Part shown: positions 35,403 through 63,596 of the stretch, piece by piece
Layout of the letters: each line of letters begins with the position of its first letter
Position numbering within the stretch: position 1 is the first letter of the stretch
Virus record (IMG/VR): IMGVR_UViG_3300031867_000049
Coordinates: 274-64,273 of that record
DNA from: a virus
Lineage: Duplodnaviria; Caudoviricetes
DNA: 64,000 bases
Strand: one strand, 5' to 3'
Notes under the pieces: model-generated
Told to the model about the DNA's origin: nothing
Database searches by the model: none
Seen by the model: the letters and a program-made list of their open reading frames with translations, nothing else
Translations under genes and position numbers: made by a program

Positions 35403-35605
35403 CGAAGGAGCATGCTGTGGCTCCGGACGAGAAGATGCTAGAGGAACTATATGAGCTTCTTGGGTTATATTTTGGGATAGAGATCGGAAACGGCATAGTA
35501 AAGCCGGGAGAACGAGTAGACATAGAACCTCAGCTTGACAGGGTTATATTTCGTGAAGAGATTCTCGCACGGATTACAGCGCTGATAGTAGGAGGTGAGA
35601 AATAA
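35375..35605 (+). CDS. Hypothetical protein
   Basis: Tiles after xis; possible GTG start at 35417 after AAGGAG. Confidence 0.45.
   Translation: MAEKQTSYVTKEHAVAPDEKMLEELYELLGLYFGIEIGNGIVKPGERVDIEPQLDRVIFREEILARITALIVGGEK
35564..35591 (+). promoter_or_regulatory. Phage promoter motif copy 1
   Basis: CTCGCA-cggatt-ACA-gcgctga-TAGT|AG. Confidence 0.75.
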
Positions 35606-35823
35606 TGAATAAGACTCTTTATGTATTAATCGTGATTGATGACTGCGTGTATCAACCTAGTATTGTGGGGATATTCGAAACTGAGCAGGACGCTAAAAAC
35701 GTAATTGAGCGAATTGAACAGAACGAACACTCTGAATTAGGTCATGCATGCTTGGAAATCGAGAAGCACGAACTTAATGCTATTGATGAGGAATTACTTG
35801 GTTATAATAATCTCTTTATCTAA
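35605..35823 (+). CDS. Early cassette protein, hypothetical
   Basis: RBS AGGAGGT starting at motif +1. Confidence 0.75.
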   Translation: MNKTLYVLIVIDDCVYQPSIVGIFETEQDAKNVIERIEQNEHSELGHACLEIEKHELNAIDEELLGYNNLFI

Positions 35824-35844
35824 AAATCGTGAGGTCTACATGGC

Positions 35845-35872
35845 CTCGCATTTTTTGCAACCTCTAGTATAG
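35845..35872 (+). promoter_or_regulatory. Phage promoter motif copy 2 (fused with terminator hairpin 35829-35856)
   Basis: CTCGCA-tttttt-GCA-acctcta-GTAT|AG. Confidence 0.8.
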
Positions 35873-35885
35873 GAGGTGAGAAATA

Positions 35886-36176: not shown

Positions 36177-36190
36177 TAGCCTCTTTTTTT
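36166..36190 (+). terminator. Cassette terminator
   Basis: GGGGC-ttttaata-GCCTC + T7. Confidence 0.7.
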
Positions 36191-36216
36191 CGCATAATGA
36201 ACAACCTCTAGTATAG
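36189..36216 (+). promoter_or_regulatory. Phage promoter motif copy 3
   Basis: TTCGCA-taatga-ACA-acctcta-GTAT|AG. Confidence 0.8.
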
Positions 36217-36467: not shown

Positions 36468-36495
36468 CTCGCATTTTTTACAGCCTCTATAATAG
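36468..36495 (+). promoter_or_regulatory. Phage promoter motif copy 4 (fused with hairpin 36452-36479)
   Basis: CTCGCA-tttttt-ACA-gcctcta-TAAT|AG. Confidence 0.8.
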
Positions 36496-36697: not shown

Positions 36698-36709
36698 CCT
36701 CTATTTTTT
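36682..36709 (+). terminator. Cassette terminator
   Basis: AGAGGCT-tataaat-AGCCTCT + AT6. Confidence 0.75.
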
Positions 36710-36735
36710 CGCATTTTTTACATCTTTCTTAATAG
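36708..36735 (+). promoter_or_regulatory. Phage promoter motif copy 5
   Basis: TTCGCA-tttttt-ACA-tctttct-TAAT|AG. Confidence 0.8.
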
Positions 36736-37008: not shown

Positions 37009-37022
37009 GCCCTCTATTTTTT
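36999..37022 (+). terminator. Cassette terminator
   Basis: GGGGGC-ttag-GCCCTC + T-tract. Confidence 0.7.
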
Positions 37023-37048
37023 CGCACGAAACACATGTTCTATTATAG
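37021..37048 (+). promoter_or_regulatory. Phage promoter motif copy 6
   Basis: TTCGCA-cgaaac-ACA-tgttcta-TTAT|AG. Confidence 0.8.
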
Positions 37049-37318: not shown

Positions 37319-37346
37319 CTCGCACCAAAAACACCTCGGTTAGTAG
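37319..37346 (+). promoter_or_regulatory. Phage promoter motif copy 7
   Basis: CTCGCA-ccaaaa-ACA-cctcggt-TAGT|AG. Confidence 0.8.
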
Positions 37347-37738: not shown

Positions 37739-37766
37739 CTCGCATTTTTTTCAGCCCCTAATATAG
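37739..37766 (+). promoter_or_regulatory. Phage promoter motif copy 8 (fused with hairpin 37723-37751)
   Basis: CTCGCA-tttttt-TCA-gccccta-ATAT|AG. Confidence 0.75.
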
Positions 37767-38166: not shown

Positions 38167-38196
38167 AGGAGGCGCAATGCCTCTTATTTTTTTTTT
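38167..38196 (+). terminator. Cassette terminator
   Basis: AGGAGGC-gcaat-GCCTCTT + T-tract. Confidence 0.75.
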
Positions 38197-38222
38197 CGCA
38201 CTGGATACATGCTCTCTAATGA
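38195..38222 (+). promoter_or_regulatory. Phage promoter motif copy 9
   Basis: TTCGCA-ctggat-ACA-tgctctc-TAAT|GA. Confidence 0.8.
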
Positions 38223-38742: not shown

Positions 38743-38781
38743 ATGGGGAGTTCGTGTTAAATACATGGGCTCTCATTTTTT
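38743..38781 (+). terminator. Cassette terminator
   Basis: ATGGGGAGTTCGTGT-taaat-ACATGGGCTCTCAT + T-tract. Confidence 0.7.
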
Positions 38782-38807
38782 CGCATATTTTACACCTCGG
38801 ATTATAG
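38780..38807 (+). promoter_or_regulatory. Phage promoter motif copy 10
   Basis: TTCGCA-tatttt-ACA-cctcgga-TTAT|AG. Confidence 0.8.
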
Positions 38808-39123: not shown

Positions 39124-39151
39124 TTCGCATGCTTTACAGGTTCTATAGTAG
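39124..39151 (+). promoter_or_regulatory. Phage promoter motif copy 11
   Basis: TTCGCA-tgcttt-ACA-ggttcta-TAGT|AG, preceded by hairpin 39098-39118 and T-tract. Confidence 0.8.
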
Positions 39152-39555: not shown

Positions 39556-39894
39556 ATGAAATACTACTACGAAAAACCAACTGAATACACCGTTACAAAA
39601 GCTAAGACGATCCATACGGATGATAAGTTATATTCTGAATGCACTCTTTATGAGGTTGATGGTAAAGGACTCAAAGTAGTGCAGCTCAGATTCAACCCCA
39701 AGCTAAAAGTTTTCTTTTACGGCCCAATAAATCCTTGGCTTATTGATGATATTTTCTCCAGAGAAGGATTTTTAGAAAACCTCTCAGATCCTCCGTATCC
39801 TACTATGACCGTACGGACGCTTATGTGGAAACTTCGGATGAAACCCCTTAAAAAAGAATGGTGGGAAAACTCGCAAATTTTACATAGTAGATAA
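39556..39894 (+). CDS. Hypothetical protein
   Basis: 112-aa ORF; no clear RBS. Confidence 0.6.
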   Translation: MKYYYEKPTEYTVTKAKTIHTDDKLYSECTLYEVDGKGLKVVQLRFNPKLKVFFYGPINPWLIDDIFSREGFLENLSDPPYPTMTVRTLMWKLRMKPLKKEWWENSQILHSR

Positions 39895-39897
39895 TGA
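39870..39897 (+). promoter_or_regulatory. Phage promoter motif copy 12
   Basis: CTCGCA-aatttt-ACA-tagtaga-TAAT|GA, inside 3' end of upstream ORF. Confidence 0.75.
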
Positions 39898-40145: not shown

Positions 40146-40175
40146 ATAAAGGTCGAACAACGGCCTTTATTTTTT
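40146..40175 (+). terminator. Cassette terminator
   Basis: ATAAAGGTCG-aacaa-CGGCCTTTAT + T-tract. Confidence 0.75.
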
Positions 40176-40201
40176 CGCAAATATTACAGCCCATATAATG
40201 A
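40174..40201 (+). promoter_or_regulatory. Phage promoter motif copy 13
   Basis: TTCGCA-aatatt-ACA-gcccata-TAAT|GA. Confidence 0.8.
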
Positions 40202-40544: not shown

Positions 40545-40562
40545 TCAGCCCTTTTATTTTTT
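40536..40562 (+). terminator. Cassette terminator
   Basis: AAGGGCT-aatc-AGCCCTT + T-tract. Confidence 0.75.
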
Positions 40563-40588
40563 CGCATTTTTTACATCTACTATAATGG
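40561..40588 (+). promoter_or_regulatory. Phage promoter motif copy 14
   Basis: TTCGCA-tttttt-ACA-tctacta-TAAT|GG. Confidence 0.8.
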
Positions 40589-40789: not shown

Positions 40790-40903
40790 ATGATGACAGT
40801 ATGGAATGTAATTAAAGGTATATGCACGATTACTGGAGCATACGTTTGGATCAAAGCAATCAAAGAAACGATTGAAGAATACAACGAAGCTCCAGAGAAG
40901 TAA
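40790..40903 (+). CDS. 37-aa microprotein
   Basis: Hand-translated MMTVWNVIKGICTITGAYVWIKAIKE...; RBS AAGGAGG. Confidence 0.6.
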   Translation: MMTVWNVIKGICTITGAYVWIKAIKETIEEYNEAPEK

Positions 40904-40923
40904 ATATAGCTAAAGCAAGCCAT

Positions 40924-40950
40924 AGGGGAGCCATTTGGTTCCTCTTTTTT
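40924..40950 (+). terminator. Cassette terminator
   Basis: AGGGGAGCC-attt-GGTTCCTCT + T5. Confidence 0.75.
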
Positions 40951-40963: not shown

Positions 40964-40991
40964 TTCGCAAAATTTACATCTTCTTTAATGA
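40964..40991 (+). promoter_or_regulatory. Phage promoter motif copy 15
   Basis: TTCGCA-aaattt-ACA-tcttctt-TAAT|GA. Confidence 0.8.
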
Positions 40992-41792: not shown

Positions 41793-41820
41793 CTCGCAGT
41801 ATTTACAACCTATGTTATAG
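41793..41820 (+). promoter_or_regulatory. Phage promoter motif copy 16
   Basis: CTCGCA-gtattt-ACA-acctatg-TTAT|AG. Confidence 0.8.
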
Positions 41821-42613: not shown

Positions 42614-42875
42614 GTATTTTGAGATCATACCGTACGAGCCGGGATTCAAAGATCCATTTCATGAAATAGCAAGAAGGACGCATATGTCAGATAACGAACT
42701 TGCTAAAGCTATGGGCTTTAAAGACGAGAACGACCGCTTTTCAAATCTTATATTTGAGGATATGAGCGATCCGGCATACATCCGTAGAATGAATAAGTTT
42801 TTAAAGGAGAAAAATCTCCCGCTTAGAATTTCTCAGACAATGCTGAAAAGGAGATACTATGACAAAGCTAACTAA
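42606..42875 (+). CDS. Hypothetical protein, possible HTH
   Basis: MSDNELAKAMGF segment. Confidence 0.6.
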   Translation: MIKYFEIIPYEPGFKDPFHEIARRTHMSDNELAKAMGFKDENDRFSNLIFEDMSDPAYIRRMNKFLKEKNLPLRISQTMLKRRYYDKAN

Positions 42876-43215
42876 GAATGGTGATATTTTGTTCCGGGAG
42901 TCATTTTGCGGCACATTCTTTAAATCCAGTCCTTTAGCGGTTCTGGAGGCCGAATATGAGTTCAATAGAAAATATGCGCTGGGCGAAGGAGATGAAAGCC
43001 TGGCGCTTTTTTATTCTCTATTAGACTTAGAGCCTCCAAAACAGTCTAAAGATGTTGGCTGGTGCTATGACTACATGTCCGCAGAGTGGGAAACTATGTG
43101 GATTGATTTTATCCATAGGCCAATGATGACAAAAGAAGGACAACCATACACAGAAATTTATTATCCAATCCCGCCGGTAAGTTTGTATTACGAGGTGGAC
43201 AATCCGTTTATGTAA
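42859..43215 (+). CDS. Stand-alone copy of the C-terminal domain of the DUF6353-like paralogues
   Basis: EAEYEFNR...SL..FY.LL.L....VGW pattern shared with 48132, 49260 and 52243 ORFs. Confidence 0.6.
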   Translation: MTKLTKNGDILFRESFCGTFFKSSPLAVLEAEYEFNRKYALGEGDESLALFYSLLDLEPPKQSKDVGWCYDYMSAEWETMWIDFIHRPMMTKEGQPYTEIYYPIPPVSLYYEVDNPFM

Positions 43216-43844: not shown

Positions 43845-44135
43845 ATGATTATAAACATACCACTAAACATAGATGATGAACTCTGGGCAAGTGCATTGGC
43901 CAGAGATTATGAATCGAAAGTAACTGAACGACTGACGGCCGAAGTTCGAAAGGCTATCTGCGATCATGATGTGTACAAGGATCAAAGACGTGGAATGCAG
44001 ACATGGGTTGGCGATAAGATCGATAATATTTTGAAGGAGTATAAAGATGAAATTATTGACGCCGCAGCAGAGAAGCTGGCTGAGAGACTTGCACGAACAA
44101 AGAGAGGAAAGGAGATACTCAATGAGACTTTATGA
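43845..44135 (+). CDS. Hypothetical protein
   Basis: RBS AAAGGAG. Confidence 0.7.
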   Translation: MIINIPLNIDDELWASALARDYESKVTERLTAEVRKAICDHDVYKDQRRGMQTWVGDKIDNILKEYKDEIIDAAAEKLAERLARTKRGKEILNETL

Positions 44136-44691
44136 TTTTGATGAATGTGTTCTTCTGGATAACAAAGGGAAAAATACAGTTAAGGTAGAGCCTACAGAAA
44201 TATCTATAGGATATGACATGTGTTCCGCTACAGAGATTGAAATACGGGGAATAGTACGAGATGACGATTGGAGACCTAATAATTTTCATTTCGAACCAGC
44301 GCGTAGAAAAGGTAGAAAAGTCGATTATAGCAAACTGTATTTGTCTATATTTGGGGATATGCCGAAAATCAAGGACGTTATATTTAATGACCCAGCGACT
44401 ATAGTATTCTGGGCCGACAGAACCAAAACTGTAGTACAGTGTCAGGACGGTGATATTTTCGATCCTGAGAAAGGTCTCGCTATGGCGATTTCTAAAAAAG
44501 CTCTAGGAAATAAGGGCAATTATAGCAACGAGCTTAAAAAGTGGCTGCCGAAAGATAAAGATGTGACATTGGAATACACACTGAATACGTCAGTGACATC
44601 AACATCGATAAACGATATGGGACAGAGCATAGTCGACGCAGTCAACAAGATGATGAATCAGCTTGAAAGAGGGCCAGTAAATGAACGATGA
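44122..44691 (+). CDS. Conserved phage protein
   Basis: IKDVIFNDPATIVFWAD.TKTVV...FDPEKGLAMAI motif; start refined. Confidence 0.7.
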   Translation: MRLYDFDECVLLDNKGKNTVKVEPTEISIGYDMCSATEIEIRGIVRDDDWRPNNFHFEPARRKGRKVDYSKLYLSIFGDMPKIKDVIFNDPATIVFWADRTKTVVQCQDGDIFDPEKGLAMAISKKALGNKGNYSNELKKWLPKDKDVTLEYTLNTSVTSTSINDMGQSIVDAVNKMMNQLERGPVNER

Positions 44692-44885
44692 GTAACGCAA
44701 ACAAAATAATAGAACATTGCCGTAAAACAGCAGGGTTAAGTGCAAAAGAGCTATCAGATAAAACAGGTATAGCATATACCACAATTCGCAAATATGAACG
44801 AGGATTAATTGACCCTACGTACGGAAAAATGGAGCAAATACTTAAAGCATGCGGATGCAAACTATATGTAAAAAGGAGCGAATGA
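44688..44885 (+). CDS. XRE/Cro-type HTH transcriptional regulator
   Basis: CRKTAGLSAKELSDKTGIAYTTIRKYERG..DP. Confidence 0.85.
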   Translation: MSNANKIIEHCRKTAGLSAKELSDKTGIAYTTIRKYERGLIDPTYGKMEQILKACGCKLYVKRSE

Positions 44886-45022
44886 TGTCACGTTATATTT
44901 TCGATCTAAAGAAATGCCCTAAGTGCGGAAGATTCATGATGGATGATTCCATGCGCATTCAGGGTGGATGGAAGATAAGATGGTACTGCTTATGCGGATA
45001 CCAAGTGGAGGAAGAGAAATAA
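44882..45022 (+). CDS. 46-aa Zn-ribbon microprotein
   Basis: Hand-translated: KKCPKCG...WYCLCGY. Confidence 0.6.
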   Translation: MMSRYIFDLKKCPKCGRFMMDDSMRIQGGWKIRWYCLCGYQVEEEK

Positions 45023-45231
45023 TGTTCATTATTAAAATAGTGGTGACCTTCTTTCTTATTCTTTGTTTCTATTGGGGCGCAATTGAACTTCTTTGGGAAG
45101 AAGATAAGATTAGCGACGAATGGCATGACTTTATTCAAGCAATAGGAACTTCATGCATGGCTTTGTTCTTTATTGGAGGAATAGTAGCAGTTGGGCTCAT
45201 GCTTATTTGGTGCCTATGGAAAGGAGTTTGA
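45022..45231 (+). CDS. Two-TM membrane protein
   Basis: Hydrophobic segments; start refined. Confidence 0.65.
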   Translation: MFIIKIVVTFFLILCFYWGAIELLWEEDKISDEWHDFIQAIGTSCMALFFIGGIVAVGLMLIWCLWKGV

Positions 45232-45245
45232 GTAGGTGATTATAT

Positions 45246-45485: not shown

Positions 45486-45491
45486 TTATGT

Positions 45492-48000: not shown

Positions 48001-48028
48001 TTCGCAAAAATTACAGACCATATAATAG
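48001..48028 (+). promoter_or_regulatory. Phage promoter motif copy 17
   Basis: TTCGCA-aaaatt-ACA-gaccata-TAAT|AG; +1 is first base of tRNA-like element. Confidence 0.8.
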
Positions 48029-48096
48029 AGAAGTAGCTTAATGGTAAAGCATCTGGTGAAAGCCAGTTGATAGAGGTTCGATTCCTCTCTTCTTTT
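48027..48096 (+). tRNA. Atypical tRNA-Phe(GAA)-like element, 6-nt anticodon loop, no CCA
   Basis: Acceptor AGAGAAG/CTTCTTT; D-arm GCTT-aatggta-AAGC; T-arm AGAGG-TTCGATT-CCTCT; anticodon arm CTGG-tgaaag-CCAG. Confidence 0.6.
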
Positions 48097-50158: not shown

Positions 50159-50186
50159 TTCGCACGAAATACAGCCTCTATAGTAG
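50159..50186 (+). promoter_or_regulatory. Phage promoter motif copy 18
   Basis: TTCGCA-cgaaat-ACA-gcctcta-TAGT|AG. Confidence 0.8.
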
Positions 50187-50466: not shown

Positions 50467-50507
50467 AAAAGGCGAAGGGGTTTCAGCTCCTTTGCTTTTT
50501 ATTTTTT
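50467..50507 (+). terminator. Cassette terminator
   Basis: AAAAGGCGAAGGGG...CTCCTTTGCTTTTT + T-tract. Confidence 0.65.
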
Positions 50508-50533
50508 CGCAGTTTTTACAACCCATATTATAG
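50506..50533 (+). promoter_or_regulatory. Phage promoter motif copy 19
   Basis: TTCGCA-gttttt-ACA-acccata-TTAT|AG. Confidence 0.8.
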
Positions 50534-51947: not shown

Positions 51948-51955
51948 GAGAAATT

Positions 51956-52240: not shown

Positions 52241-52242
52241 GC

Positions 52243-53681: not shown

Positions 53682-53691
53682 GAGGTAAGAA

Positions 53692-54189
53692 ATGAGTAAC
53701 TATATAGTGGACACTGAATATTATCAGTGGCTGCTTGATCAGATAGATTATTACGAAGGTGACGGATTTGATGAAGCACTGGAAATAATGTTCGAAACAC
53801 CGTTCGAGTGGGATATTCCGAATGATGATAACCGTGCGGAAGATGGGATAGGGCTTAGAGCAATATTTATGGATGAGGAAAATTGGCATACAGAACCTCT
53901 GTTTGAGAAGGAATGCAACACCCTCGAAATGTTTGTTGCTCTGGCTATGCGTATCGAAAATGACATCATGTGGGATGGAGAAACCGACCGGACGAGTGAG
54001 TGGTTTTGGATGATGATCCGTAATATGGGCATAAAAAGAGGTGATTTACCTGGATATGTTTACGGTAAATTAGAGGATTTTATGCATCATAGGGGTGTTA
54101 CGCCGTTTCCGCTTCGTGAAAAGAGCAAAAAACCATGCGAAATATGGTTTCAGGCGCAGCAATATTTGATGGAAAAGTATGACTTCTAA
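53692..54189 (+). CDS. Conserved phage hypothetical protein
   Basis: DDNRAEDG..LR...LEM.VALA.RI motif; RBS AGGAGGT. Confidence 0.75.
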   Translation: MSNYIVDTEYYQWLLDQIDYYEGDGFDEALEIMFETPFEWDIPNDDNRAEDGIGLRAIFMDEENWHTEPLFEKECNTLEMFVALAMRIENDIMWDGETDRTSEWFWMMIRNMGIKRGDLPGYVYGKLEDFMHHRGVTPFPLREKSKKPCEIWFQAQQYLMEKYDF

Positions 54190-54228
54190 AAGGACGATTT
54201 TTGGTGATTTTTTTCCAAAAAGTGGTCT

Positions 54229-54396
54229 TGGACCAGTTTTGGACCAGTTTTGGACCAGTTTTTAGAGGCCTCAACCCCAGTAATTGCAAGGGTTTGACCA
54301 GTTTACCAGTTTTTTTCGCTCTGTTAATAGAAAAAGTGTAAAAAAAGTCATAAATAATAATATAAAGTAAGAAAAATTTCTGGTTTTCTGGTCCAA
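54229..54396. repeat. Candidate replication origin: 3 x TGGACCAGTTT iterons, partial copies, AT-rich stretch, inverted copies
   Basis: 54229-54261 tandem 11-mers; ACCAGTTT copies at 54295-54312; inverted TGGACCAGAAAACCAGAA at 54379-54396; directly upstream of replicase gene. Confidence 0.65.
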
Positions 54397-54424
54397 CGAT
54401 AGGAAAGGGGGAATTTAATGAAAA

Positions 54425-57400
54425 ATGTATGATTTCTTTAAAATTTGCACTAAAGAAGTCGAAAAAAGAGGCAGATTGGAGTCCGTGACAATATATCCTA
54501 AGTTCATTATTAATGGCCGCTCTAAAGATCTTATGATACGGGGCGGCGATTTTTATGCAGTTTGGGATGTTGATGCAGGGCTTTGGTCTACCGAGGAAGA
54601 TACAGTTAGTGAGATAATAGACCGCGAAATAAGAAAAACGGTCGAGGAGCTAAAGAATAAATACCCGGAGACGGTGAAAATAGTACCACAATATATGTGG
54701 GACTCGGATTCCGGCAGTATTGACAAATGGCATAAATATGTTCAGAAGCAATTACGTGATAGATATGTCCAGCTGGATAATAAAGTTATCTTTCAGAATA
54801 CTGATGTCAAAAAAGAAGACTACGCCAGTAAGAAATTAGGATACTCGATAGTTGAATCTGAGATACCTGCTTACGACGAACTTATGTCGACATTATATTC
54901 CGATGATGAAAGAGCTAAATTAGAATGGGCTATTGGGTCAATAATAAATGGTGACTCGAAACATATTCAGAAGTTTATAGTTTTGTATGGTTCAGCAGGA
55001 ACAGGAAAGTCGACAGTACTGAATATTATTCAGGAACTATTTGATGGATATTGTGCTACGTTTAATGCTAAGTCTTTAGCTTCTTCAAATAATGATTTTG
55101 CGCTTGAAGATTTTAAGTCCAATCCTCTAATTGCTATTCAGCATGATGGTGATTTAAGCAGAATCGCTGATAATACAAAATTAAACAGCATTGTATCTCA
55201 TGAAACTATGGTGGTGAATGAGAAATTCAAAAGCAAATACAGTGCTAAGTTTGATTCGTTCATATTTATGGGCACAAATAAGCCGGTTAAAATAACGGAA
55301 GCAAGATCCGGACTTTTAAGAAGGCTTATCGATGTAAGACCCACCGGTGAGAAATTGTCATTTACAAAATACAATAGGCTTACAAAAGCTATTAAATATG
55401 AGCTTGGTGGAATCGCATATCATTGCCTGAAAGTTTATGAGGATATGGGTGAGGATTATTACAACAGCTATATTCCAAAAGATATGATGTCAGTAACAAA
55501 TGATTTCTACGACTTTATCGATGAATATCTTGATCAGTTTATGGTGAAAGATCCAATGCTTTTAACCTGGGCATGGACAAAGTATAAGGAATATTGTGAA
55601 TCAGCGAACATATCTTATCCAATGCCAAGAAAGAATTTTAAAGAGGAGCTTAAGAACTACTATAAAAGGTATGATGACCGAACAAGAATTGATGGAGAGT
55701 ATAACCGGAATGTATATTCGGACTTTAAGTACAATATGTTTATCGGTGGTACTGAGAAAAAACAAGAAGTAGATAGCGAGTTTGAATTAAAAGAACAGCC
55801 ATCTATTTTTGATTCTTATTGTTCCGGTTGTCCTGCACAGTATGCTTCTAAAAGAGAAACACCACTTAAGAAATGGGACGATGTTACTACCAAGCTTGAG
55901 GATATTGATACTTCGCAGCTTCATTATGTGAAACTACCAGAGAATCATATTGTTATTGATTTTGATCTAAAAGATGATAATGGCGAGAAATGCTTTGAAA
56001 AGAATTTAAAGGCTATTTCAAACTGGCCGGCAACATATGCTGAAGTAAGTAAAGGTGGAGCCGGAATTCATTTGCATTACATCTATGATGGTGATACATC
56101 GAAGCTTAGCAGCATATTTGCACCTAATATCGAGGTGAAAACATTTCTTGGGAAGTCATCATTAAGAAGAAAGCTGACAAAATGCAATAATCTTCCGATA
56201 GCGCATATTAATTCGAATCTTCCACTAAAGGAGGAGAAAGTGGTTAATTATGACATAGTGAAAGACGAGAAGCATCTTCGGAATATTATTAAGAAATGCC
56301 TTAAAAAAGAGAATCATGGCGCCACTGCACCGGAAATCGATCTTATTAAGAAAGTTCTTGACGATGCGTATAATTCCGGAATGGAATATGACGTGTCTGA
56401 TATGAAGCAAAACGTTATGGCTTTTGCTATTAAAAGCACCCATCAGGCACAGAAATGTATGAAACAAGTCCGGAATATGCATTTTATGTCTGAAGATAAA
56501 GAGGTCGAGGCAACGAGTTTATCAGATAATCAATATAAATCTGACAAGCTCGTCTTTTTTGATGTGGAAGTATTTCCTAATTTCTTCGGAGTATGCTGGA
56601 AATTCGAGGATGATGAGCATGTGACTAAGATGTTTAATCCTACACCTGAAGAGATACGAGATATTCTGGATTACAAATTAGTAGGCTTTAATAACCGAAG
56701 ATATGATAACCATATTCTTTATGCAAGGCTGCAAGGATTTAGCAATGCAGAATTATTTAATTTGTCGCAGAGGATTGTCGATAAAGGTGACAAAAATGCA
56801 TTTTTTAGAGAAGCATACAACTTGTCATATACTGACATCTATGATTTCGCTGCTACAAAGCAGAGCCTAAAGAAGTGGGAAATAGAACTTGGCATACACC
56901 ATCAGGAATTAGGAATGAAATGGGATGAGCCAGTTCCTGAAGAAATGTGGGATCTTGTCATGGATTATTGTGCAAACGATGTAATTGCAACAGAAGCTGT
57001 ATTTAAGCATTTAAGTGCTGACTTCGAAGCCAGGGAAATATTATGTGCAATAACAGGTAGTTCGCTGAATACAACTACAAATCAGAATACAACAAAATTG
57101 ATTGTTGGAAATGATAAAAATCCACAAAGTTCATTTGTTTATACTGATTTAAGTGAAATATTTCCTGGATATACGTTTGAAAATGGCAAATCCATATATA
57201 AAGGTGAAGAAGTTGGGGAAGGAGGATATGTTTATTCAGAACCAGGAATGTATACAAATATTGCCTTACTGGATATTGCAAGTATGCATCCTAATAGTGC
57301 AATTAACCTTAACATATTTGGCCCATATACCAAGAATTTCCAAGAGCTTGTTAATGCTCGTCTTTACATTAAACACGGTGACTACGATTCTGCTGGCAAG

Positions 57401-58228
57401 CTATTTGATGGAAAGTTAAAGCCGTATCTTAAAGATAAAGACCAGGCTAAAAGATTGGCATATGCATTAAAGATAGCTATCAATTCTGTATACGGATTAA
57501 CCGCTGCCAAATTCGACAATAAATTAAGAGATCCTCGTAATGTAGATAATATCGTTGCAAAGCGAGGAGCTTTATTTATGGTCAATTTGAAAGAGGAGGT
57601 CCAGAAACGTGGATACACAGTCGCTCATATTAAAACCGATTCTATTAAGATTCCAAATGCCGATCAAAAGATTATTGATTTTGTTATGGAATATGGTAAG
57701 AAATATGGCTATACATTCGAGCATGAAGCAACATATGACAGAATGTGTCTTATCAATAAATCCGTATATATTGCCAAAGATGCAGCAGATGGGCATTGGT
57801 CAGCTACTGGTGCACAGTTCCAAGTACCATATGTCTTTAAAACATTATTCAGTCACGAGCCGATTGAGCTTAAGGATAAATGCGAAACCAAAACTGTTAC
57901 TTCTGCTTTGTATTTGGATATGAATGAAGAACTTGGTGAAGGCGAACATAATTATCAATTCGTTGGAAAAGCTGGTTCATTCTGTCCGATTAAACCGGGA
58001 TGCGGTGGCGGATTATTAATGCGTGAATCTGAAGGCAAATTTGATGCGGCAACAGGAACTAAAGGATATCGCTGGCTCGAATCTGAAACAGTGCAAGCAT
58101 TAAATAAAGAAGATGACATTGACGTATCTTATTATAACAAACTAGTTGATGAAGCTGTTTATGTTATTTCCAAATATGGAGATGCAGAATGGTTTATTTA
58201 TAGTGACGATGATGAAAGGAGCAACTAA
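54425..58228 (+). CDS. SF3 helicase - AEP primase - 3'-5' exonuclease - family B DNA polymerase fusion
   Basis: GSAGTGKST; IVIDFD and SKGGAGIHLHY; FFDVE, GFNN..YD, YCANDV; DIASMHPNS, KIAINSVYG, IKTDS. Confidence 0.9.
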   Translation: MYDFFKICTKEVEKRGRLESVTIYPKFIINGRSKDLMIRGGDFYAVWDVDAGLWSTEEDTVSEIIDREIRKTVEELKNKYPETVKIVPQYMWDSDSGSIDKWHKYVQKQLRDRYVQLDNKVIFQNTDVKKEDYASKKLGYSIVESEIPAYDELMSTLYSDDERAKLEWAIGSIINGDSKHIQKFIVLYGSAGTGKSTVLNIIQELFDGYCATFNAKSLASSNNDFALEDFKSNPLIAIQHDGDLSRIADNTKLNSIVSHETMVVNEKFKSKYSAKFDSFIFMGTNKPVKITEARSGLLRRLIDVRPTGEKLSFTKYNRLTKAIKYELGGIAYHCLKVYEDMGEDYYNSYIPKDMMSVTNDFYDFIDEYLDQFMVKDPMLLTWAWTKYKEYCESANISYPMPRKNFKEELKNYYKRYDDRTRIDGEYNRNVYSDFKYNMFIGGTEKKQEVDSEFELKEQPSIFDSYCSGCPAQYASKRETPLKKWDDVTTKLEDIDTSQLHYVKLPENHIVIDFDLKDDNGEKCFEKNLKAISNWPATYAEVSKGGAGIHLHYIYDGDTSKLSSIFAPNIEVKTFLGKSSLRRKLTKCNNLPIAHINSNLPLKEEKVVNYDIVKDEKHLRNIIKKCLKKENHGATAPEIDLIKKVLDDAYNSGMEYDVSDMKQNVMAFAIKSTHQAQKCMKQVRNMHFMSEDKEVEATSLSDNQYKSDKLVFFDVEVFPNFFGVCWKFEDDEHVTKMFNPTPEEIRDILDYKLVGFNNRRYDNHILYARLQGFSNAELFNLSQRIVDKGDKNAFFREAYNLSYTDIYDFAATKQSLKKWEIELGIHHQELGMKWDEPVPEEMWDLVMDYCANDVIATEAVFKHLSADFEAREILCAITGSSLNTTTNQNTTKLIVGNDKNPQSSFVYTDLSEIFPGYTFENGKSIYKGEEVGEGGYVYSEPGMYTNIALLDIASMHPNSAINLNIFGPYTKNFQELVNARLYIKHGDYDSAGKLFDGKLKPYLKDKDQAKRLAYALKIAINSVYGLTAAKFDNKLRDPRNVDNIVAKRGALFMVNLKEEVQKRGYTVAHIKTDSIKIPNADQKIIDFVMEYGKKYGYTFEHEATYDRMCLINKSVYIAKDAADGHWSATGAQFQVPYVFKTLFSHEPIELKDKCETKTVTSALYLDMNEELGEGEHNYQFVGKAGSFCPIKPGCGGGLLMRESEGKFDAATGTKGYRWLESETVQALNKEDDIDVSYYNKLVDEAVYVISKYGDAEWFIYSDDDERSN

Positions 58229-58722
58229 TGGAAAATAATCAGACTATTACAATTTGGGATGCTAAGCTTTATTTCAAGAACTTTGCAGGTGCAGAAGGTA
58301 GATATAACCAGAAAGGAGACAGAAACTTTGGAGTATTCATCGATGATGAAACAGCAAAGCAGCTTGAAGAAGATGGATGGAATGTAAAATACACAAAGCC
58401 GAATGAGGATGGATATCAGAGGCCTTATCTCAAAGTTAAGGTGAGCTATAAGGGTTATCAGAAGCCTAGACTTTATCTCGAGGATGAAGAAGGGCATAAG
58501 GTAATACTCAAAGAAGAAGATGTTGCAGACCTCGATGAGTATGTGTTTGACAAAATCGATCTTAAGATTCGCCATGCATATCTTAAGAATTATGATGTGT
58601 GGACACAGTATCTTGATAAAGGATATTTCGTAATGGTTGAAGACGAGATTGATAAGGCTCATGGAAATAATCCTGCAATGTCAGGTCCTATCGAAGACGA
58701 TCTGGATGACATTCCATTTTAG
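58228..58722 (+). CDS. ssb: Single-stranded DNA-binding protein
   Basis: FKNFAG...GDRNF; acidic C-terminus DDLDDIPF. Confidence 0.8.
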   Translation: MENNQTITIWDAKLYFKNFAGAEGRYNQKGDRNFGVFIDDETAKQLEEDGWNVKYTKPNEDGYQRPYLKVKVSYKGYQKPRLYLEDEEGHKVILKEEDVADLDEYVFDKIDLKIRHAYLKNYDVWTQYLDKGYFVMVEDEIDKAHGNNPAMSGPIEDDLDDIPF

Positions 58723-58725
58723 GAG

Positions 58726-59925
58726 GTGAAAACGGTGTCCGTAGAATTATATGAACACCAAAAGCTCGCAGTTCCTAAATTAAAAAATGGATCAATATTA
58801 TGTGGCGGGGTCGGCTCTGGTAAATCCAGAACGGCCCTTGCCTATTTTTTGGAAAAGGAATTGGATGGATCATTAGAAACATTAAAAGTAAAAAAGCATA
58901 AAGACTTATATATAATAACTACTGCTAGAAAAAGAGATACTAATGAATGGCTTGATGAATGTACTCCGTTCGAATTTCCAAAAGAAATAAACATAGTTAT
59001 TGATTCTTGGAATAACATAAGAAAATATACTAATGTGTGCAATGCCTTTTTTATTTTCGATGAGCAACGAGTAGTTGGATATGGAGCATGGACAAAAGCA
59101 TTCTTGCAAATAACAAAAAAAAATCGATGGATTTTACTTAGTGCAACTCCTGGCGATACATGGTCTGACTATATTCCGGTGTTTATTGCAAATGGGTTCT
59201 ATAAGAATAAAACAGAATTTGTAAGAAGACATATTGTGTATAATCGCTTTTCTAAATTTCCAAAAGTTGATAGATACCTTGATACTGGGAGACTTATGAA
59301 ATTAAGAAAAGACATTTTGGTTAATATGAAATTTATGAAACCGACACAGGTTCATCATAAAACATTAATAGCCAAATATGACACAGCAGCATATTCTTAT
59401 GTGACAACCGAAAGAAAGAACTATTACACAAAAGAGCCATTTAAGAATATGGGAGCGCTTTGTTTGAATTTAAGACAAATAGTGAATTCCGATCAAGACA
59501 GGGTTGCGCTTCTTAGAATGCTTATTTTGCAAAATCCAAAAGTAATTGTTTTTTATAACTTTGATTATGAGTTAGAAATACTAAGAGAATTAGGAAAAGA
59601 GCTTGAAATTAAAACTGCTGAATGGAATGGGCATATTCATGAGCCGATACCAGATGAGAAATATTCTGAGTGGATGTATTTAGTTCAGTATACTGCCGGA
59701 GCCGAAGGGTGGAATTGTATAGAAACGAATGTCATAATTTTTTATTCACAAAACTATTCTTATAAAATAATGACTCAGGCGGCCGGAAGAATAGATAGAT
59801 TAAATACTCCATTTTCAGACTTGTATTATTATCATCTACGTTCTAATTCGAGCATAGATATTTCAATCATGCGGGCTTTAAGGAAAAAGAAAAATTTTAA
59901 TGCAAGCGGTTTTTCATTAGATTAA
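58726..59925 (+). CDS. SF2 (SNF2/DEAD-like) helicase
   Basis: GGVGSGKS, FDEQR, LSATPG, QAAGRIDR. Confidence 0.9.
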   Translation: MKTVSVELYEHQKLAVPKLKNGSILCGGVGSGKSRTALAYFLEKELDGSLETLKVKKHKDLYIITTARKRDTNEWLDECTPFEFPKEINIVIDSWNNIRKYTNVCNAFFIFDEQRVVGYGAWTKAFLQITKKNRWILLSATPGDTWSDYIPVFIANGFYKNKTEFVRRHIVYNRFSKFPKVDRYLDTGRLMKLRKDILVNMKFMKPTQVHHKTLIAKYDTAAYSYVTTERKNYYTKEPFKNMGALCLNLRQIVNSDQDRVALLRMLILQNPKVIVFYNFDYELEILRELGKELEIKTAEWNGHIHEPIPDEKYSEWMYLVQYTAGAEGWNCIETNVIIFYSQNYSYKIMTQAAGRIDRLNTPFSDLYYYHLRSNSSIDISIMRALRKKKNFNASGFSLD

Positions 59926-59948
59926 CATTTACAAGGCTTCTTTCAAAA

Positions 59949-59976
59949 TTCGCGCGAAAAACAAGGACTCTAATAG
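59949..59976 (+). promoter_or_regulatory. Phage promoter motif copy 20
   Basis: TTCGCG-cgaaaa-ACA-aggactc-TAAT|AG. Confidence 0.7.
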
Positions 59977-60005
59977 AAGGAGAAGAGTAACTCCTTCTTT
60001 TTTTT
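59975..60005 (+). terminator. Terminator/attenuator beginning exactly at predicted +1
   Basis: AGAAGGAG-aagagtaa-CTCCTTCT + T7. Confidence 0.8.
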
Positions 60006-60023
60006 GTGCGAAAGGAGTAACCA

Positions 60024-60317
60024 ATGGCTAAAGAAAATAAATTTCAAGCCAATCTTATTAAGGAATTAGAAAAAGAATTTCCAGGATCTATTATTACAAA
60101 ATTAGATCCTAATCATATCCAAGGAATTCCAGATCTTTTAATTCTTTATAAAGATAAATGGGCAACTCTTGAATGTAAGAAGTCATCTAATGCTAAACAT
60201 CAGCCAAATCAGGATGACTATGTGGAGAGAATGAATGAGATGTCATTCTCTTCTTTTATTTGTCCTGAAAATAAGGAGGAAGTATTAAATGAACTTCAAC
60301 ACGCATTACGAGATTAA
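60024..60317 (+). CDS. VRR-NUC-like PD-(D/E)XK nuclease (Holliday junction resolvase-like)
   Basis: GIPDLLIL...LECK...Q. Confidence 0.85.
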   Translation: MAKENKFQANLIKELEKEFPGSIITKLDPNHIQGIPDLLILYKDKWATLECKKSSNAKHQPNQDDYVERMNEMSFSSFICPENKEEVLNELQHALRD

Positions 60318-60846
60318 AGATAAGCATGCGTTTTTGAGTCCAAGCAAACATTACTGGATCAATTGGGATATCGAAAAATTAAGAACTTCATTTAAAAATG
60401 CTCAAGCTGCAGAAAGAGGGACAAGACTTCATGCGTTAGCAGCAGAATGCATTTCCCTTGGCGTAAAACTGCAAAACAACAAAACAACTTTGAGCATGTA
60501 TGTAAATGATGCGCTTGGCTACAAAATGACTGCTGAAGTTCCATTATTTTATTCTTCAAACTGTTTTGGTCATGCTGATGCTTTGTCATTCAATCGAAAG
60601 TTATTAAGGATTTTCGATTTAAAAACGGGAACCGTGTCTCAAGGGTCAATGGATCAGCTTCTTATTTATGCTGCATTATTTTGCCTTGAATACCATATCG
60701 ATCCACGAACCATCAAATATGATTTACGAATTTACCAATTTGATAAAGCGGTCTGTTATGAACCAAGCGGCGAAGAAATAAATGAAATTATGGACATTAT
60801 TATCGAACTTGATACTTACCTTGAAGAAATGAAAGTTGAGGAGTAA
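60289..60846 (+). CDS. PD-(D/E)XK (Cas4/RecB-like) exonuclease
   Basis: AFLSPS..HW; GTRLH; AEVPL; GHADAL; IFDLKTG; QL.IYA. Confidence 0.8.
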   Translation: MNFNTHYEIKDKHAFLSPSKHYWINWDIEKLRTSFKNAQAAERGTRLHALAAECISLGVKLQNNKTTLSMYVNDALGYKMTAEVPLFYSSNCFGHADALSFNRKLLRIFDLKTGTVSQGSMDQLLIYAALFCLEYHIDPRTIKYDLRIYQFDKAVCYEPSGEEINEIMDIIIELDTYLEEMKVEE

Positions 60847-60848
60847 TT

Positions 60849-63596
60849 ATGGAAAAAGACGAATTAATGCACTATGGTACTCCTCGGCATTCTGGGAGAT
60901 ATCCGTGGGGCTCAGGAGAAAATCCTTATCAGCATAGTTATGGAGGTTTTTTAGGGCAATACGAATATTACAAGAAATCCGGTGAATTTAAGAATAATAC
61001 TGAAATTGCTCGTGCTATGGGTATGAGCACAACAGAATTCAGAGATAAGCTGTCTAATGCAAAATCTGAAAAAAGAGCTGCTGATAGAGCAAAAGCCATC
61101 GAATTACTAAATCAACAGAAAAATGCTTCTGCTGATGGAAAAGCCAATGTTTCACAAATTGCTCGAGAAATGGGCTTAAATGAGTCTTCAGTAAGAAATC
61201 TTTTGAAAGATACTCTTAATGAAAGAGCTCAAATTACTAAAAATACAGCAGAATTGCTAAAAAAGAACGTTGACGAAAAAAAGTATATCGATGTTGGTAC
61301 TGGCGTTGAAAATCATTTGGGAATAAGCCAAACAAAATTAAGAGCTGCTATAGATCAACTTAAATCTGAAGGCTATCACGTAGAAAATGTATATGTTGAG
61401 CAAGTAGGCACAGGAAAACAGACAACTGTTAAAGTGCTTGTTGGACCAAAATGCACATGGAGTGAAGTTAACAGAAATAAAGATCAAATACAGCTCATAA
61501 ATGGCTATTCTGAAGATAAAGGCAGAACTTTTCTTAATATTGAGCCTCCAGTAAGTGTCGATTCTAGCAGAATAAAAATTAATTATGATTCGCCTAAAGA
61601 TGGAGTAATTGAACTTCGAAGAGGTGTTGATGACATATCTTTAGGAAATGCTAGTTATGCACAAGTTCGAATTGCTGTAGATGGAACGCATTATTTAAAA
61701 GGAATGGCTATGTATTCCGATAATATGCCAAAAGGTGTTGACATTATGTTCAACACAAATAAGCATGAAGGAACGCCAATGATGGCACCAAATAAAGATG
61801 ATAAACAAGTATTAAAAATGCTTAAAACAAACAAAGACAATGTATTTGGTGCAACTATCAAAAATGATGAGGATGTTATTCTGACTCAAAGACACTATAT
61901 TGATAAAGATGGCGTTAGAAGACAGTCAGCAATAAACGTTGTTAATGAAGAAGGAGATTGGGGAAAATGGTCTAAGAGCCTATCTTCACAATTTCTTTCT
62001 AAACAATCGCCAATGCTAGCAAAAAAGCAGCTTGAAATAACATCAACACAGCAAAGAGCTGAATTAGATGAAATAAAGAGCCTTACGAATCCAGTAGTTA
62101 AACAAAAGCTACTGGATTCTTTTGCTAATGACTGTGATTCTAAAGCAGTACATTTAAAAGCAGCAAATTTACCAAGACAAGCAAGCCATGTAATTCTTCC
62201 TTTCCCTAATATGAAAGAGAATGAAGTATATGCTCCAAATTATAGAGATGGAGAAAACGTAGTCCTGATTCGTTATCCTCATGGAGGTAAATTTGAAATT
62301 CCACAGTTAAAAGTAAATAACAATAATAAAGAGGCTAGAAGTTTATTAGGAAATGCACCAGATGCTATTGGAATAAATCCAAAAGTAGCAGGTAAATTAT
62401 CTGGTGCTGACTTTGATGGTGATACAGTTCTTGTTATTCCTGTAAATAATAGAGTTAAAGTTCAAACACAGAATTCGCCAGCATTTAAAGCTCTTCAAAC
62501 CTTCGATCCACAAGAAAGTTATCCAGGATATGAAGGCATGAAGAAAATGACAGCCCATCAAAAGCAAATAGAAATGGGTAAAGTATCGAATCTTATTACA
62601 GATATGACACTTTACAGAGCTAGTGATGATGAAATAGTGCGCGCTGTTAAACATTCTATGGTAGTTATTGATGCTGAGAAGCATGGTCTTAACTGGAAGC
62701 AATCAGAAATAGATAATGGAATTCCTCAGCTTAAAAAGAAATACCAAGGAAAAGAAACTGGTGGTGCTGCCACTCTTATTTCGAGAGCCAAGTCTGAGTC
62801 AAGACCTAATGAAAGAAAAGAAATATTTAATACTAGCCGCATGACCCCTGAACAACTAGCTGATTGGAAGGCTGGTAAAAAAGTATATGTTGATACTGGT
62901 AAATCATATGTGGATAAAAATGGAAATACTGTCGTTCGTAAAACAAAATCCACACAGATGGCAGAGACAGATGACGCATATAAAATAACAAGCGGGGGGT
63001 CTAAAAATAATCCAGGCACAGTTATGGAGTCTATATACGCCCAGCACGCCAATACCCTCAAGGGGATGGCGGATGAGGCACGCCGGGAGTCAAGGTCTAT
63101 AAAAGGAACGCCTTACAATCCTCAAGCAAAGAAAATATATGCTAACGAGGTGGCCTCCTTAGATGCTAAATTAGACCGGGCTATGAAAAATAAACCGTTA
63201 GAGAGACAGGCCCAGCTCATAGCAAATAAGACCATATCTGATCAGACTAAGGCCAATCCGGATATGTCTAAGGATGAGAAAAAAAGATTAAAACAGCAGG
63301 CCCTATCAGGGGCTAGATATAGAGTGGGTAAGGAGCCTTACACCATAAATATTACAGAAAAAGAATGGGATGCTATTCAATCTGGAGCTATTTCTAAGTC
63401 TAAACTCTCATCTATATTAGACAATGCGGATATGGATCAAGTTAAAAAATATGCAACTCCAAAACAATCAAAAGGATTATCACAAGCTAAAATAAGTAGA
63501 GCTAAAGCCTTACTTAATGCAGGCTTTACACAAGCAGAAGTCGCTGATGAATTAGGAATATCTACAACCACACTGTCGAGAAGTCTTAATAGTTAA
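60849..63596 (+). CDS. Putative single-chain two-barrel DNA-dependent RNA polymerase with HTH domains and LMH|YG leader
   Basis: VLIRYP (R475), IGINPKVAGKLSGADFDGD (D521-D525), YAQVRI...LKG (K284); HTHs at ~aa50-66, ~100-119, ~893-913. Confidence 0.8.
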   Translation: MEKDELMHYGTPRHSGRYPWGSGENPYQHSYGGFLGQYEYYKKSGEFKNNTEIARAMGMSTTEFRDKLSNAKSEKRAADRAKAIELLNQQKNASADGKANVSQIAREMGLNESSVRNLLKDTLNERAQITKNTAELLKKNVDEKKYIDVGTGVENHLGISQTKLRAAIDQLKSEGYHVENVYVEQVGTGKQTTVKVLVGPKCTWSEVNRNKDQIQLINGYSEDKGRTFLNIEPPVSVDSSRIKINYDSPKDGVIELRRGVDDISLGNASYAQVRIAVDGTHYLKGMAMYSDNMPKGVDIMFNTNKHEGTPMMAPNKDDKQVLKMLKTNKDNVFGATIKNDEDVILTQRHYIDKDGVRRQSAINVVNEEGDWGKWSKSLSSQFLSKQSPMLAKKQLEITSTQQRAELDEIKSLTNPVVKQKLLDSFANDCDSKAVHLKAANLPRQASHVILPFPNMKENEVYAPNYRDGENVVLIRYPHGGKFEIPQLKVNNNNKEARSLLGNAPDAIGINPKVAGKLSGADFDGDTVLVIPVNNRVKVQTQNSPAFKALQTFDPQESYPGYEGMKKMTAHQKQIEMGKVSNLITDMTLYRASDDEIVRAVKHSMVVIDAEKHGLNWKQSEIDNGIPQLKKKYQGKETGGAATLISRAKSESRPNERKEIFNTSRMTPEQLADWKAGKKVYVDTGKSYVDKNGNTVVRKTKSTQMAETDDAYKITSGGSKNNPGTVMESIYAQHANTLKGMADEARRESRSIKGTPYNPQAKKIYANEVASLDAKLDRAMKNKPLERQAQLIANKTISDQTKANPDMSKDEKKRLKQQALSGARYRVGKEPYTINITEKEWDAIQSGAISKSKLSSILDNADMDQVKKYATPKQSKGLSQAKISRAKALLNAGFTQAEVADELGISTTTLSRSLNS

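Follow-up and report, generated by a model that had tools for sequence, protein, structure and literature searches.

A few unusual phages, namely N4, the crAss-like phages, the jumbo phages and P23-45, are known to carry an RNA polymerase in the virion. Likened by description, crAss-like gp66 and the N4 virion RNA polymerase (vRNAP) resemble what is proposed for the enzyme considered here, since the virion ejects them and they then transcribe early genes, but they are giant proteins belonging to virulent phages of podovirus-like type, and the N4 vRNAP has a different fold. The Thermus siphoviruses P23-45 and P74-26 encode single-chain two-barrel polymerases, of which the virion-borne one transcribes the earliest genes (PMC10770324); this enzyme, gp96, is fused to the tape measure protein and is complemented by a second, non-virion enzyme (gp64/gp62). 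Another single-chain two-barrel DNA-dependent polymerase, again likened by description, is YonO of the temperate phage SPbeta (PMC5467207), which differs in that it is not reported to be virion-borne. The closest relatives are the HTH-flanked ‘RdRP-like’ proteins of PHROG 4291, encoded by Lactococcus phage 1706, Faecalibacterium phages and the actinophage supercluster. This family has already been predicted computationally to consist of two-barrel polymerases (PMC2919709, 2010; bioRxiv 10.1101/842583, 2021) and is itself not new, but neither paper describes a promoter, virion packaging or a leader. A search of the literature likewise found no description of the promoter-like motif or the leader/DUF7211 element discussed below, of their link, or of the biochemistry of this polymerase family.

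The window, by which we mean the whole 64,000-nucleotide stretch of DNA analysed, derives from a 64-kb siphovirus with an integrase, a member of the large ‘1706-like / actinophage supercluster’ lineage (>8000 protein clusters). This lineage is common among soil actinophages. In human gut viromes, 1706-like sequences have been reported as abundant (PMC4002922). As the best explanation of the features described here, and one that we regard as moderately probable, the lineage carries its own transcription system, composed of a virion-loaded polymerase and a dedicated promoter. New here are the occurrence of the motif across relatives, the recovery of the lineage from IMG/VR by the motif alone, and the ‘structural protein’ label on the phage 1706 homologue of the polymerase.

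The polymerase gene (60849..63596, plus strand, as are all features below whose coordinates are written with two dots) encodes a 915-aa protein that matches PHROG 4291 end to end in a profile search (E=0, 1207 bits). It shares 39-54% identity with its full-length homologues, whose genes likewise lie at the right genome end and which carry the same HTH at either terminus and the same DxDGD loop; it is a member of the family, and nothing essential differs. Residues 512-635 match the Pfam RdRP family PF05183 (24.5 bits against a cut-off of 23.8), and HTH matches lie at residues ~76-130 and 875-914. From the N-terminus, the protein comprises a helical/HTH region (aa 33-145, 60945..61283) recognised from the model and from HTH_23 and sigma-70 region-4-like matches; a first beta-barrel region (aa ~240-305, 61566..61763, boundaries approximate) defined by the strand pattern of the model and taken to be the beta-like barrel; a second, beta-prime-like barrel region (aa ~445-532, 62181..62444) assigned from the model, Foldseek and conservation; and a C-terminal HTH found by domain search (aa 875-914, 63471..63590). 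The second barrel holds R475-x-P477 and the DFDGD metal-binding loop (D521, D523, D525; 62409..62423). Across 45 homologues these three aspartates, R475 and P477 are invariant, as are K284, K305, D251, D262 and D298, which fall within the first barrel as placed on the predicted model.

The AF2 model (pLDDT 81.4) has as its top Foldseek match the Neurospora RNAi polymerase QDE-1 (E 8.5e-9, probability 1.0), followed by plant RDR2, P74-26 gp62, the gp64 RNA polymerase entry 8f72, P23-45 gp96 and then beta-prime/Rpb1 chains; at the level of the predicted model, the two-barrel (double-psi beta-barrel) RNA polymerase fold is thus confirmed. QDE-1 and RDR2, both PF05183 proteins, share the catalytic loop and are the best structural matches, but at 10-13% identity and a global TM-score of only ~0.3; they differ in lacking both HTH modules and a promoter and in serving eukaryotic silencing. 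The Thermus phages have two enzymes, the virion one being fused to another protein; in this phage the enzyme is single and free-standing, has HTHs fused to it and begins with a leader. PDB sequence and profile searches returned HTH look-alikes only, so that Pfam, PHROG and fold are the sole routes that reveal the relationship; megablast of the gene against the phage collection gave no match, its relatives being found at the protein level only. The initial annotation had credited this ORF with catalytic two-barrel motifs, and the DFDGD loop at residues 521-525, the PHROG 4291 match and the Foldseek fold matches bear this out.

The second component is a 27-nt promoter-like motif of ~30 bits, TCGCA-N6-ACA-N5-TATAAT-AG. 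It had been put forward as a tripartite, non-sigma70 signal before 20 transcription units, and a weight-matrix scan (>=20 bits) indeed finds exactly 20 copies between 35565 and 59950, all on the plus strand and with invariant spacing. The best background score is below 11 bits, random sequences give ~0.5 matches, and the same scan finds no copy in the 34-kb late region. The first sixteen copies lie at 35565..35591 (with a Shine-Dalgarno sequence directly after), 35846..35872, 36190..36216, 36469..36495 (the top score, 37.7 bits), 36709..36735, 37022..37048, 37320..37346, 37740..37766, 38196..38222, 38781..38807, 39125..39151, 39871..39897, 40175..40201, 40562..40588, 40965..40991 and 41794..41820. 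Copy 17 (48002..48028) abuts a tRNA-like gene (48027..48096; ARAGORN; Rfam tRNA, 55.8 bits), copies 18 and 19 lie at 50160..50186 and 50507..50533, and copy 20 (59950..59976), a TCGCG variant, lies upstream of the endonuclease-exonuclease-polymerase operon.

The small genes of this region are variable, and the copies coincide with the boundaries of their cassettes, as might be expected if the motif were not a promoter at all and acted instead as an RNA- or DNA-level signal, for instance to be processed, to be bound by a regulator or to promote recombination between cassettes as a hotspot. We consider this very improbable, given that the motif keeps strictly to one strand and directly precedes ribosome-binding sites. 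Moreover, a hairpin with a T-run precedes most copies and would end the upstream transcript, so that transcription would need to re-initiate at the motif. A terminator- or attenuator-like hairpin and T-run also stands right behind copy 20 (59975..60006).

If the motif is a promoter, its geometry bears on which enzyme reads it. A sigma-70-type promoter is defined by -35 and -10 hexamers 16-18 bp apart, or by a TG-extended -10, with transcription starting ~7 nt after the -10 element. Here the TCGCA box is 14 bp from TATAAT and there is no TG extension; by this definition the motif is not a sigma-70-type promoter, and a sigma-70 scan of 44100-64000 called none of the four copies in that interval. 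In nine copies AGGAGG begins right behind TATAAT, and the tRNA-like gene starts at motif position 26 of copy 17. These Shine-Dalgarno and tRNA positions place the transcription start at or before motif position 26 and exclude a start at +7 after the hexamer.

The universal -10 hexamer, TATAAT, stands in perfect form at the end of the motif, so that host sigma-A could nonetheless take part. The copies would then be sigma-A promoters with TATAAT as the -10 element and a lineage-specific activator bound to TCGCA/ACA, as in T4 middle promoters, in which the spacing of the MotA box resembles that of the upstream box at 14 bp. The two-barrel protein would on this account serve in RNA priming for replication or in virion DNA binding, in keeping with the position of its gene among replication genes and with the ability of QDE-1-type enzymes to copy single-stranded templates as well (PMC9508822). 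We judge such host-read promoters improbable: with a start 7 nt past the hexamer, nine cassettes would lose their Shine-Dalgarno sequence and the tRNA-like gene its 5' acceptor strand, phages of hosts from two phyla carry the identical motif, and an activator of the earliest genes would itself need virion delivery. Nor is there a conserved activator candidate of known type. An ORF combining sigma4 and alphaCTD elements (45492-46157) was weighed as the reader of the motif but discarded, being absent from phages 1706, Mudcat and ReqiPoco6.

The distribution of the motif among relatives provides a further line of evidence. Polymerase-bearing relatives from Lactococcus, Arthrobacter, Rhodococcus, Gordonia and Streptomyces carry the same motif in the same geometry, including phage 1706, Mudcat and ReqiPoco6; RosaAsantewaa, Crocheter, Qui and Namo have 5, 9, 37 and 12 forward matches against 0, 0, 2 and 0 in reverse, and TCGCA, TCGCG and TCGCT variants are mixed within single genomes. 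Scanning IMG/VR with the DNA motif alone returned almost only this lineage. The polymerase is encoded in 34 of the 50 records so selected, and in 21 of the 22 that are at least 90% complete. Polymerase-negative records also lack the neighbouring exonuclease gene and seven carry the lineage's tail protein, which identifies them as truncated fragments. The co-occurrence of motif and DFDGD protein that the initial annotation proposed to check is thus strongly upheld across the relatives, and no counter-example emerged among the motif-selected IMG/VR records and the named phages.

At the sequence level, this co-occurrence ties the motif to the lineage and not uniquely to the polymerase. Since it is lineage-wide, some other conserved protein could read the motif, such as the product of 51164-51775, the DUF6353 paralogues or the lineage-conserved 85-aa ORF of PHROG 4303 (63674..63931), the final gene before the right genome end. 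Of the genes that all four compared phages conserve, only the polymerase is of a transcription type or recognisably DNA-binding, and a motif copy also lies upstream of its gene in Mudcat and ReqiPoco6. We regard the pairing of this polymerase with this promoter as quite probable.

How the enzyme would reach its promoters is a separate matter. With the polymerase gene itself behind a motif copy, a first dose of enzyme is needed, which favours delivery with the virion. The N-terminal leader (aa 1-23, 60849..60917) reads L6-x-H8-Y-G10 ... W-G21-S-G23, is disordered in the model and is invariant in the 45 homologues. The same pattern, L-x-H-Y-G followed by W(G), opens three basic head-module proteins (1027..2214, 4037..4654 and 4657..5055; 23-27% Lys+Arg), which match the 25-residue Pfam model DUF7211 (PF23847) at 33, 38 and 43.9 bits against a cut-off of 27. 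The claim that the polymerase begins with the head-protein leader stands insofar as L-x-HYG...WG is common to all four proteins. It needs amending in that the polymerase carries a diverged form, with a longer HYG-to-WG spacing and no match to the DUF7211 model at E up to 1. Together with the common pattern, a 204-aa head-region ORF bearing the polymerase-type leader in one IMG/VR record (G016) bridges the two forms and argues for their relatedness. Short N-terminal tags of this general kind have a precedent in T4, in which IPI-III and Alt carry a capsid-targeting sequence on basic proteins that are packed into the prohead, whose protease trims them. The T4 sequence has no similarity to the present leader, and the likeness lies in a tag on basic proteins, here a putative one. 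Whether the leader acts as a packaging signal appears to us evenly balanced. The head module also encodes a fusion of prohead protease (S78), acidic scaffold and major capsid protein (6368..8218) enriched in hydrophobic-x-His sites; cleavage of the leader by this protease at L-x-H|YG seems doubtful.

For phage 1706, GenBank EU081845 labels as ‘structural protein’ both orf75, the polymerase homologue, and orf7, a DUF7211-like protein encoded beside TerL that is the positional equivalent of 1027..2214. The same label is given to two small leaderless proteins encoded among the replication genes, so contaminants may lie behind some of these assignments. On these sequence and annotation grounds, virion delivery of the polymerase is slightly favoured. 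Alternatively, the polymerase might read the motif without being packaged, following T7-like logic in which a host-read promoter supplies it after infection and its leader has another role. Consistent with this, its gene is located in the replication module after the exonuclease gene, away from the head genes, and, if lambda-type cos packaging is a guide, at the end of the genome expected to enter the cell first; its leader is unmatched by DUF7211, and the virion support is at annotation level. However, no enriched or well-placed sigma-70-type promoter was found upstream of the polymerase operon, where the motif copy is the sole signal; the leader is common to head-module proteins and exchanged with them in G016; and 1706 orf75 is labelled structural. 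We rate post-infection synthesis from a host promoter as unlikely.

In the transcription system that we favour, a single-chain two-barrel RNA polymerase of ~100 kDa, carrying fused DNA-binding HTH modules at its two ends, would itself recognise a 25-27-bp promoter, TCGCA-N6-ACA-N5-TATAAT-A/G, and would start transcription at or beside the last A/G. The 20 promoters would drive early and middle cassettes, the tRNA-like gene and the operon containing the polymerase gene. The enzyme would be loaded into the head via its conserved L-x-HYG...WG leader, a presumed variant of the DUF7211 tag, and be ejected with the DNA to fire the motif promoters without host RNA polymerase. In the initial annotation, the polymerase is a late product that the prohead protease matures and that, once injected, acts independently of host RNA polymerase; each of these steps is something that we, too, can only infer. 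Counting against the system as a whole, an integrase-bearing phage would need a source of polymerase on induction.

A broader reading, which we offer tentatively and rate at a little short of even, takes a compact, virion-packaged, sigma-free two-barrel polymerase with a 27-bp promoter to be a hallmark of a very large siphovirus lineage across Firmicutes and Actinobacteria, and the DUF7211 / hydrophobic-x-His leader to be a general head-loading or processing tag for the polymerase and other cargo. Integrase-bearing prophages such as that of this phage, in which no classical repressor was recognised among the 20 early ORFs examined, could then stay silent mainly through absence of the polymerase, as the host enzyme may not read the early promoters. 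If the favoured system is real, an ordinary-sized siphovirus lineage would rely on a single-chain two-barrel enzyme of 100 kDa that has promoter recognition built in. This would be the smallest two-barrel transcription system to be self-sufficient and have a defined promoter, and its freedom from host promoter specificity would allow one phage lineage to cross host phyla. Culturable relatives make every step testable, and the system would provide a tractable model for DNA recognition by an ancestral RNA polymerase core and possibly an orthogonal expression tool for Gram-positive bacteria.

The source IMG/VR record is 64,273 bp long and is rated 100% complete; the window covers its bases 274-64273 and has a GC content of 39.9%. 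Small ORFs at the left end are followed by genes for an HNH endonuclease (256-702), a connector-like protein (681-1061), a basic protein (1027-2214), the large terminase (2289-4037), two further basic proteins (4037-4654 and 4657-5055), the portal (5055-6344) and a prohead protease-scaffold-capsid fusion (6368-8218, +), then by tail genes that include a 1935-aa tape measure and by a lysis region. A tyrosine integrase gene on the minus strand (33888-34994) and the adjoining Xis-like ORF with an HTH_17 domain occupy 33888-35402, beyond which lie approximately 25 kb of small rightward genes. The replication block comprises primase-PolB (54425-58228), an annealing protein, a helicase, an endonuclease and an exonuclease, after which come P0001 (60849-63596, +; 915 aa), here termed the polymerase, and an 85-aa ORF ending 69 nt short of the record end. 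Given this gene order, integrase-carrying siphovirus is a fair label, and Pfam recognized no CI/Cro-type repressor among 20 early ORFs of the window. The window also encodes a zinc-ribbon protein (46150-46872, +) with a dATP/dGTP diphosphohydrolase N-terminal domain (80 bits), and from this domain it may act in nucleotide-pool manipulation or a modified-base pathway.

The polymerase bears a catalytic-type loop, D521-F-D-G-D525, and is covered from end to end by PHROG 4291 (‘RNA-dependent RNA polymerase’; E=0), while its match to the Pfam RdRP model PF05183 lies barely above threshold. HTH and sigma-70 region-4-like matches fall near residues 76-130 and 875-914. An AlphaFold2 model built from an alignment of 45 homologues has a mean pLDDT of 81.4, with residues 1-30 disordered, and its best Foldseek match in the PDB is QDE-1 (E 8.5e-9, probability 1.0), followed in order by plant RDR2, P74-26 gp62 and the gp64 RNA polymerase entry 8f72, P23-45 gp96 and, after these, beta-prime/Rpb1 chains from cellular polymerases. 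Residues D521, D523, D525, R475 and P477 are invariant across the alignment. Because loop, profile matches, fold matches and invariant residues agree, the two-barrel assignment made in the initial annotation is sound. Full-length homologues with 39-54% identity occur in 250 phage records, the gene lying a few hundred bases from the genome end in every record listed, and more than 8000 metagenome protein clusters match. The homologue of Lactococcus phage 1706 was already placed among five YonO-like families in 2010 (PMC2919709), and the HTH-flanked, DxDGD-bearing protein was described as a signature gene of the actinophage supercluster and the 1706/Faecalibacterium group (Koert et al., bioRxiv 10.1101/842583). 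One IMG/VR record, G043 (77,324 bp), holds two full-length homologues (345-3128 and 64062-66767) and could be a concatemer, a misassembly or a two-copy genome.

Repeat finding and an iterated weight matrix identified exactly 20 copies of a 27-nt motif, TCGCA-N6-(A)CA-N5-TATAAT-AG, in the window, all on the + strand between 35565 and 59950, confirming the number of promoter-like signals first reported. The information content is about 30 bits, and individual copies score 20.8-37.7 bits against a background maximum below 11 bits; the same scan found no copy in the 34-kb structural region. A hairpin and T-run precede most copies, and the early region thus forms a string of terminator-promoter-RBS-ORF cassettes. 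The claimed non-sigma70 geometry likewise holds, as TATAAT lacks a TG extension and 14 bp separate it from the upstream box. Scanning 44100-64000 for the sigma-70 consensus returned 57 sites, fewer than the 66 in shuffled sequence, and none of the motif copies there was called.

Features immediately downstream of the motif bear on where transcripts begin. In nine copies AGGAGG begins at the base right after TATAAT, and in two more it begins at most 5 nt after. A tRNA-like gene (48027-48096, +) starts at position 26 of copy 17 (48002-48028) and is followed by a T-run; it was called by ARAGORN and gives a full-length match to the Rfam tRNA model (55.8 bits). Its anticodon loop is one base shorter than that of the Rfam model, and ARAGORN reads it as a 4-nt ‘gaaa’. 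Since initiation about 7 nt downstream of a -10 hexamer would leave these ribosome-binding sites out of the transcript, along with the tRNA-like gene's 5' acceptor strand, transcription would have to start at or before position 26. In phage single-polymerase promoters the conserved block extends up to +1, and a motif with such a start has a matching arrangement. That the motif is not a promoter at all, the last-ranked of three alternatives we considered, is highly improbable. At copy 20 (59950-59976), which precedes the replication/polymerase operon, a hairpin and T-run follow the motif at once, within 59950-60006 (+). The equivalent site in 1706 has the ACA and TATAAT-AG boxes and then a hairpin and T-run, and that in Rhodococcus phage ReqiPoco6 has a full motif copy with a hairpin downstream; the sites compared in relatives' records were L002 ~40864-40930 and L004 45759-45830. 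Such a hairpin could be an attenuator gating the operon.

The motif recurs with identical spacing, on the coding strand only, at the opening of the early regions of 1706 (as a TATAGT-AG variant), Arthrobacter phage Mudcat (in a TCGCG form) and ReqiPoco6 (14 copies, including one that lies 6 nt ahead of a tRNA). In a wider phage scan allowing at most two mismatches, forward/reverse matches numbered 5/0 and 12/0 in Streptomyces phages RosaAsantewaa and Namo, 9/0 in Gordonia phage Crocheter and 37/2 in Arthrobacter phage Qui, with a single match in gut phage MT835495; hosts of the motif-bearing phages span two phyla. In the reverse test, 2.9 million IMG/VR contigs were scanned by DNA pattern alone and the matching records then checked for the polymerase. 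It was present in 34 of the 50 motif-selected records and in 21 of the 22 that were at least 90% complete, the exception being a provirus with one motif match, so that the co-occurrence anticipated at the outset was recovered. The exonuclease gene that lies just upstream of the polymerase was found in none of the 16 polymerase-negative records, seven of which carry the lineage's major tail protein, and these records are therefore fragments ending before the right end. No genome was found that has the motif array but lacks the polymerase, the case that the initial annotation had named as refuting its proposal. Because the polymerase is a lineage signature gene, this co-occurrence reflects lineage-wide co-inheritance rather than one-to-one pairing.

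Comparison of all window ORFs with 1706, Mudcat and ReqiPoco6 narrows the candidates for a dedicated reader of the motif. The non-structural genes common to all four phages are those for primase-PolB, annealing protein, helicase, endonuclease, exonuclease, polymerase and the 85-aa ORF, together with PHROG 4079 (51164-51775) and one DUF6353 paralogue (52243-53079), and among them only the polymerase has recognizable DNA-binding or transcription domains. DUF6353 (PHROG 2152), a family of unknown function kept in the relatives, has two other full paralogues in the window (48132-48989 and 49260-50135, +) and a partial one (42859-43215, +). A 221-aa protein (45492-46157, +) joins sigma-70 region 4 (57 bits) to the C-terminal domain of an RNA polymerase alpha subunit (63.5 bits). 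This protein lacks sigma region 2 and was rejected as reader of the motif, having no counterpart in 1706, Mudcat or ReqiPoco6; it could instead act on host RNA polymerase as a decoy or adaptor. The second-ranked alternative, a host sigma-A promoter used with a phage activator while the two-barrel protein serves replication, we regard as quite improbable. On these genomic comparisons, the polymerase probably pairs with the motif as its promoter.

Copy 20 precedes the polymerase operon, and a copy lies at the equivalent place in Mudcat and ReqiPoco6. If the polymerase transcribes the gene that encodes it, an initial supply must come from somewhere, and the initial annotation had it packaged by means of a leader shared with head proteins. 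The polymerase carries a diverged variant of that leader. The sequence L-x-H-Y-G, then W(G), does open ORFs 1027-2214, 4037-4654 and 4657-5055 as well as the polymerase, but the polymerase form has a longer HYG-to-WG spacing, and the DUF7211 model (PF23847), which matches the three head-module proteins (23-27% Lys+Arg) above threshold, does not recognize the polymerase N-terminus. We found no mention of DUF7211 in the literature searched. Phages 1706, Mudcat and ReqiPoco6 all keep the leader in their polymerases, after N-terminal extensions of varying length, and across the 45 homologues L6, H8, G10, S15-G-R17, G21 and G23 vary little or not at all, a conservation equal to that of the catalytic loop. 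In IMG/VR record G016, an ORF of 204 aa close to the left end of the genome has the polymerase-type leader and, by sequence, bridges the two variants.

Annotation gives independent support for presence in the virion: GenBank EU081845 (phage 1706) labels orf75, the polymerase homologue, a ‘structural protein’, as it does orf6 and orf7 just upstream of the terminase gene, and the ReqiPoco6 record repeats the label by similarity. The same label is given to two small leaderless replication-region proteins, and some carry-over in the 1706 proteomics is thus possible. The first-ranked alternative, a non-virion, T7-like polymerase, is unlikely in our estimate; delivery of the polymerase in the virion is modestly favored. 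The 1706 orf7 product (L005 2501-3889) has two DUF7211-like repeats, each with hydrophobic-x-His ahead of it, and resembles a polyprotein joining cargo modules that the window encodes as individual genes. Hydrophobic-x-His sites number 10 versus 4.4 expected in the protease-scaffold-capsid fusion (P ~0.002) and 12 versus 4.8 in that of 1706 (L005 6971-9031), concentrated in the acidic scaffold part. This excess fits the protease-site idea, short of proof, and cleavage of the leader at L-x-H|YG is a tentative suggestion. The spacer of the fusion is extremely acidic; the cargo proteins of the head module are strongly basic.

In the mechanism we propose, polymerase synthesized during infection would be taken into the prohead by its disordered N-terminal leader, together with the basic DUF7211 cargo, and would exit with the DNA at the next infection. 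Its fused HTH modules would bind the 27-bp promoters, the correspondence of three HTHs with a three-box promoter being suggestive, no more, and transcription would begin at about position 26 and end at the hairpin terminators. For the 34-kb late block, which lacks the motif, transcripts would presumably come either from read-through of the copy-20 operon over the joined cos ends or from host RNA polymerase. Both the protein family and the activity predicted for it have been published, and the concept of virion polymerases is well established; the conserved promoter, the leader and a connection between 1706 orf75 as a virion protein and its polymerase nature were not found in the literature searched. 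The case is well supported by genome comparison, and culturable relatives make it directly testable.
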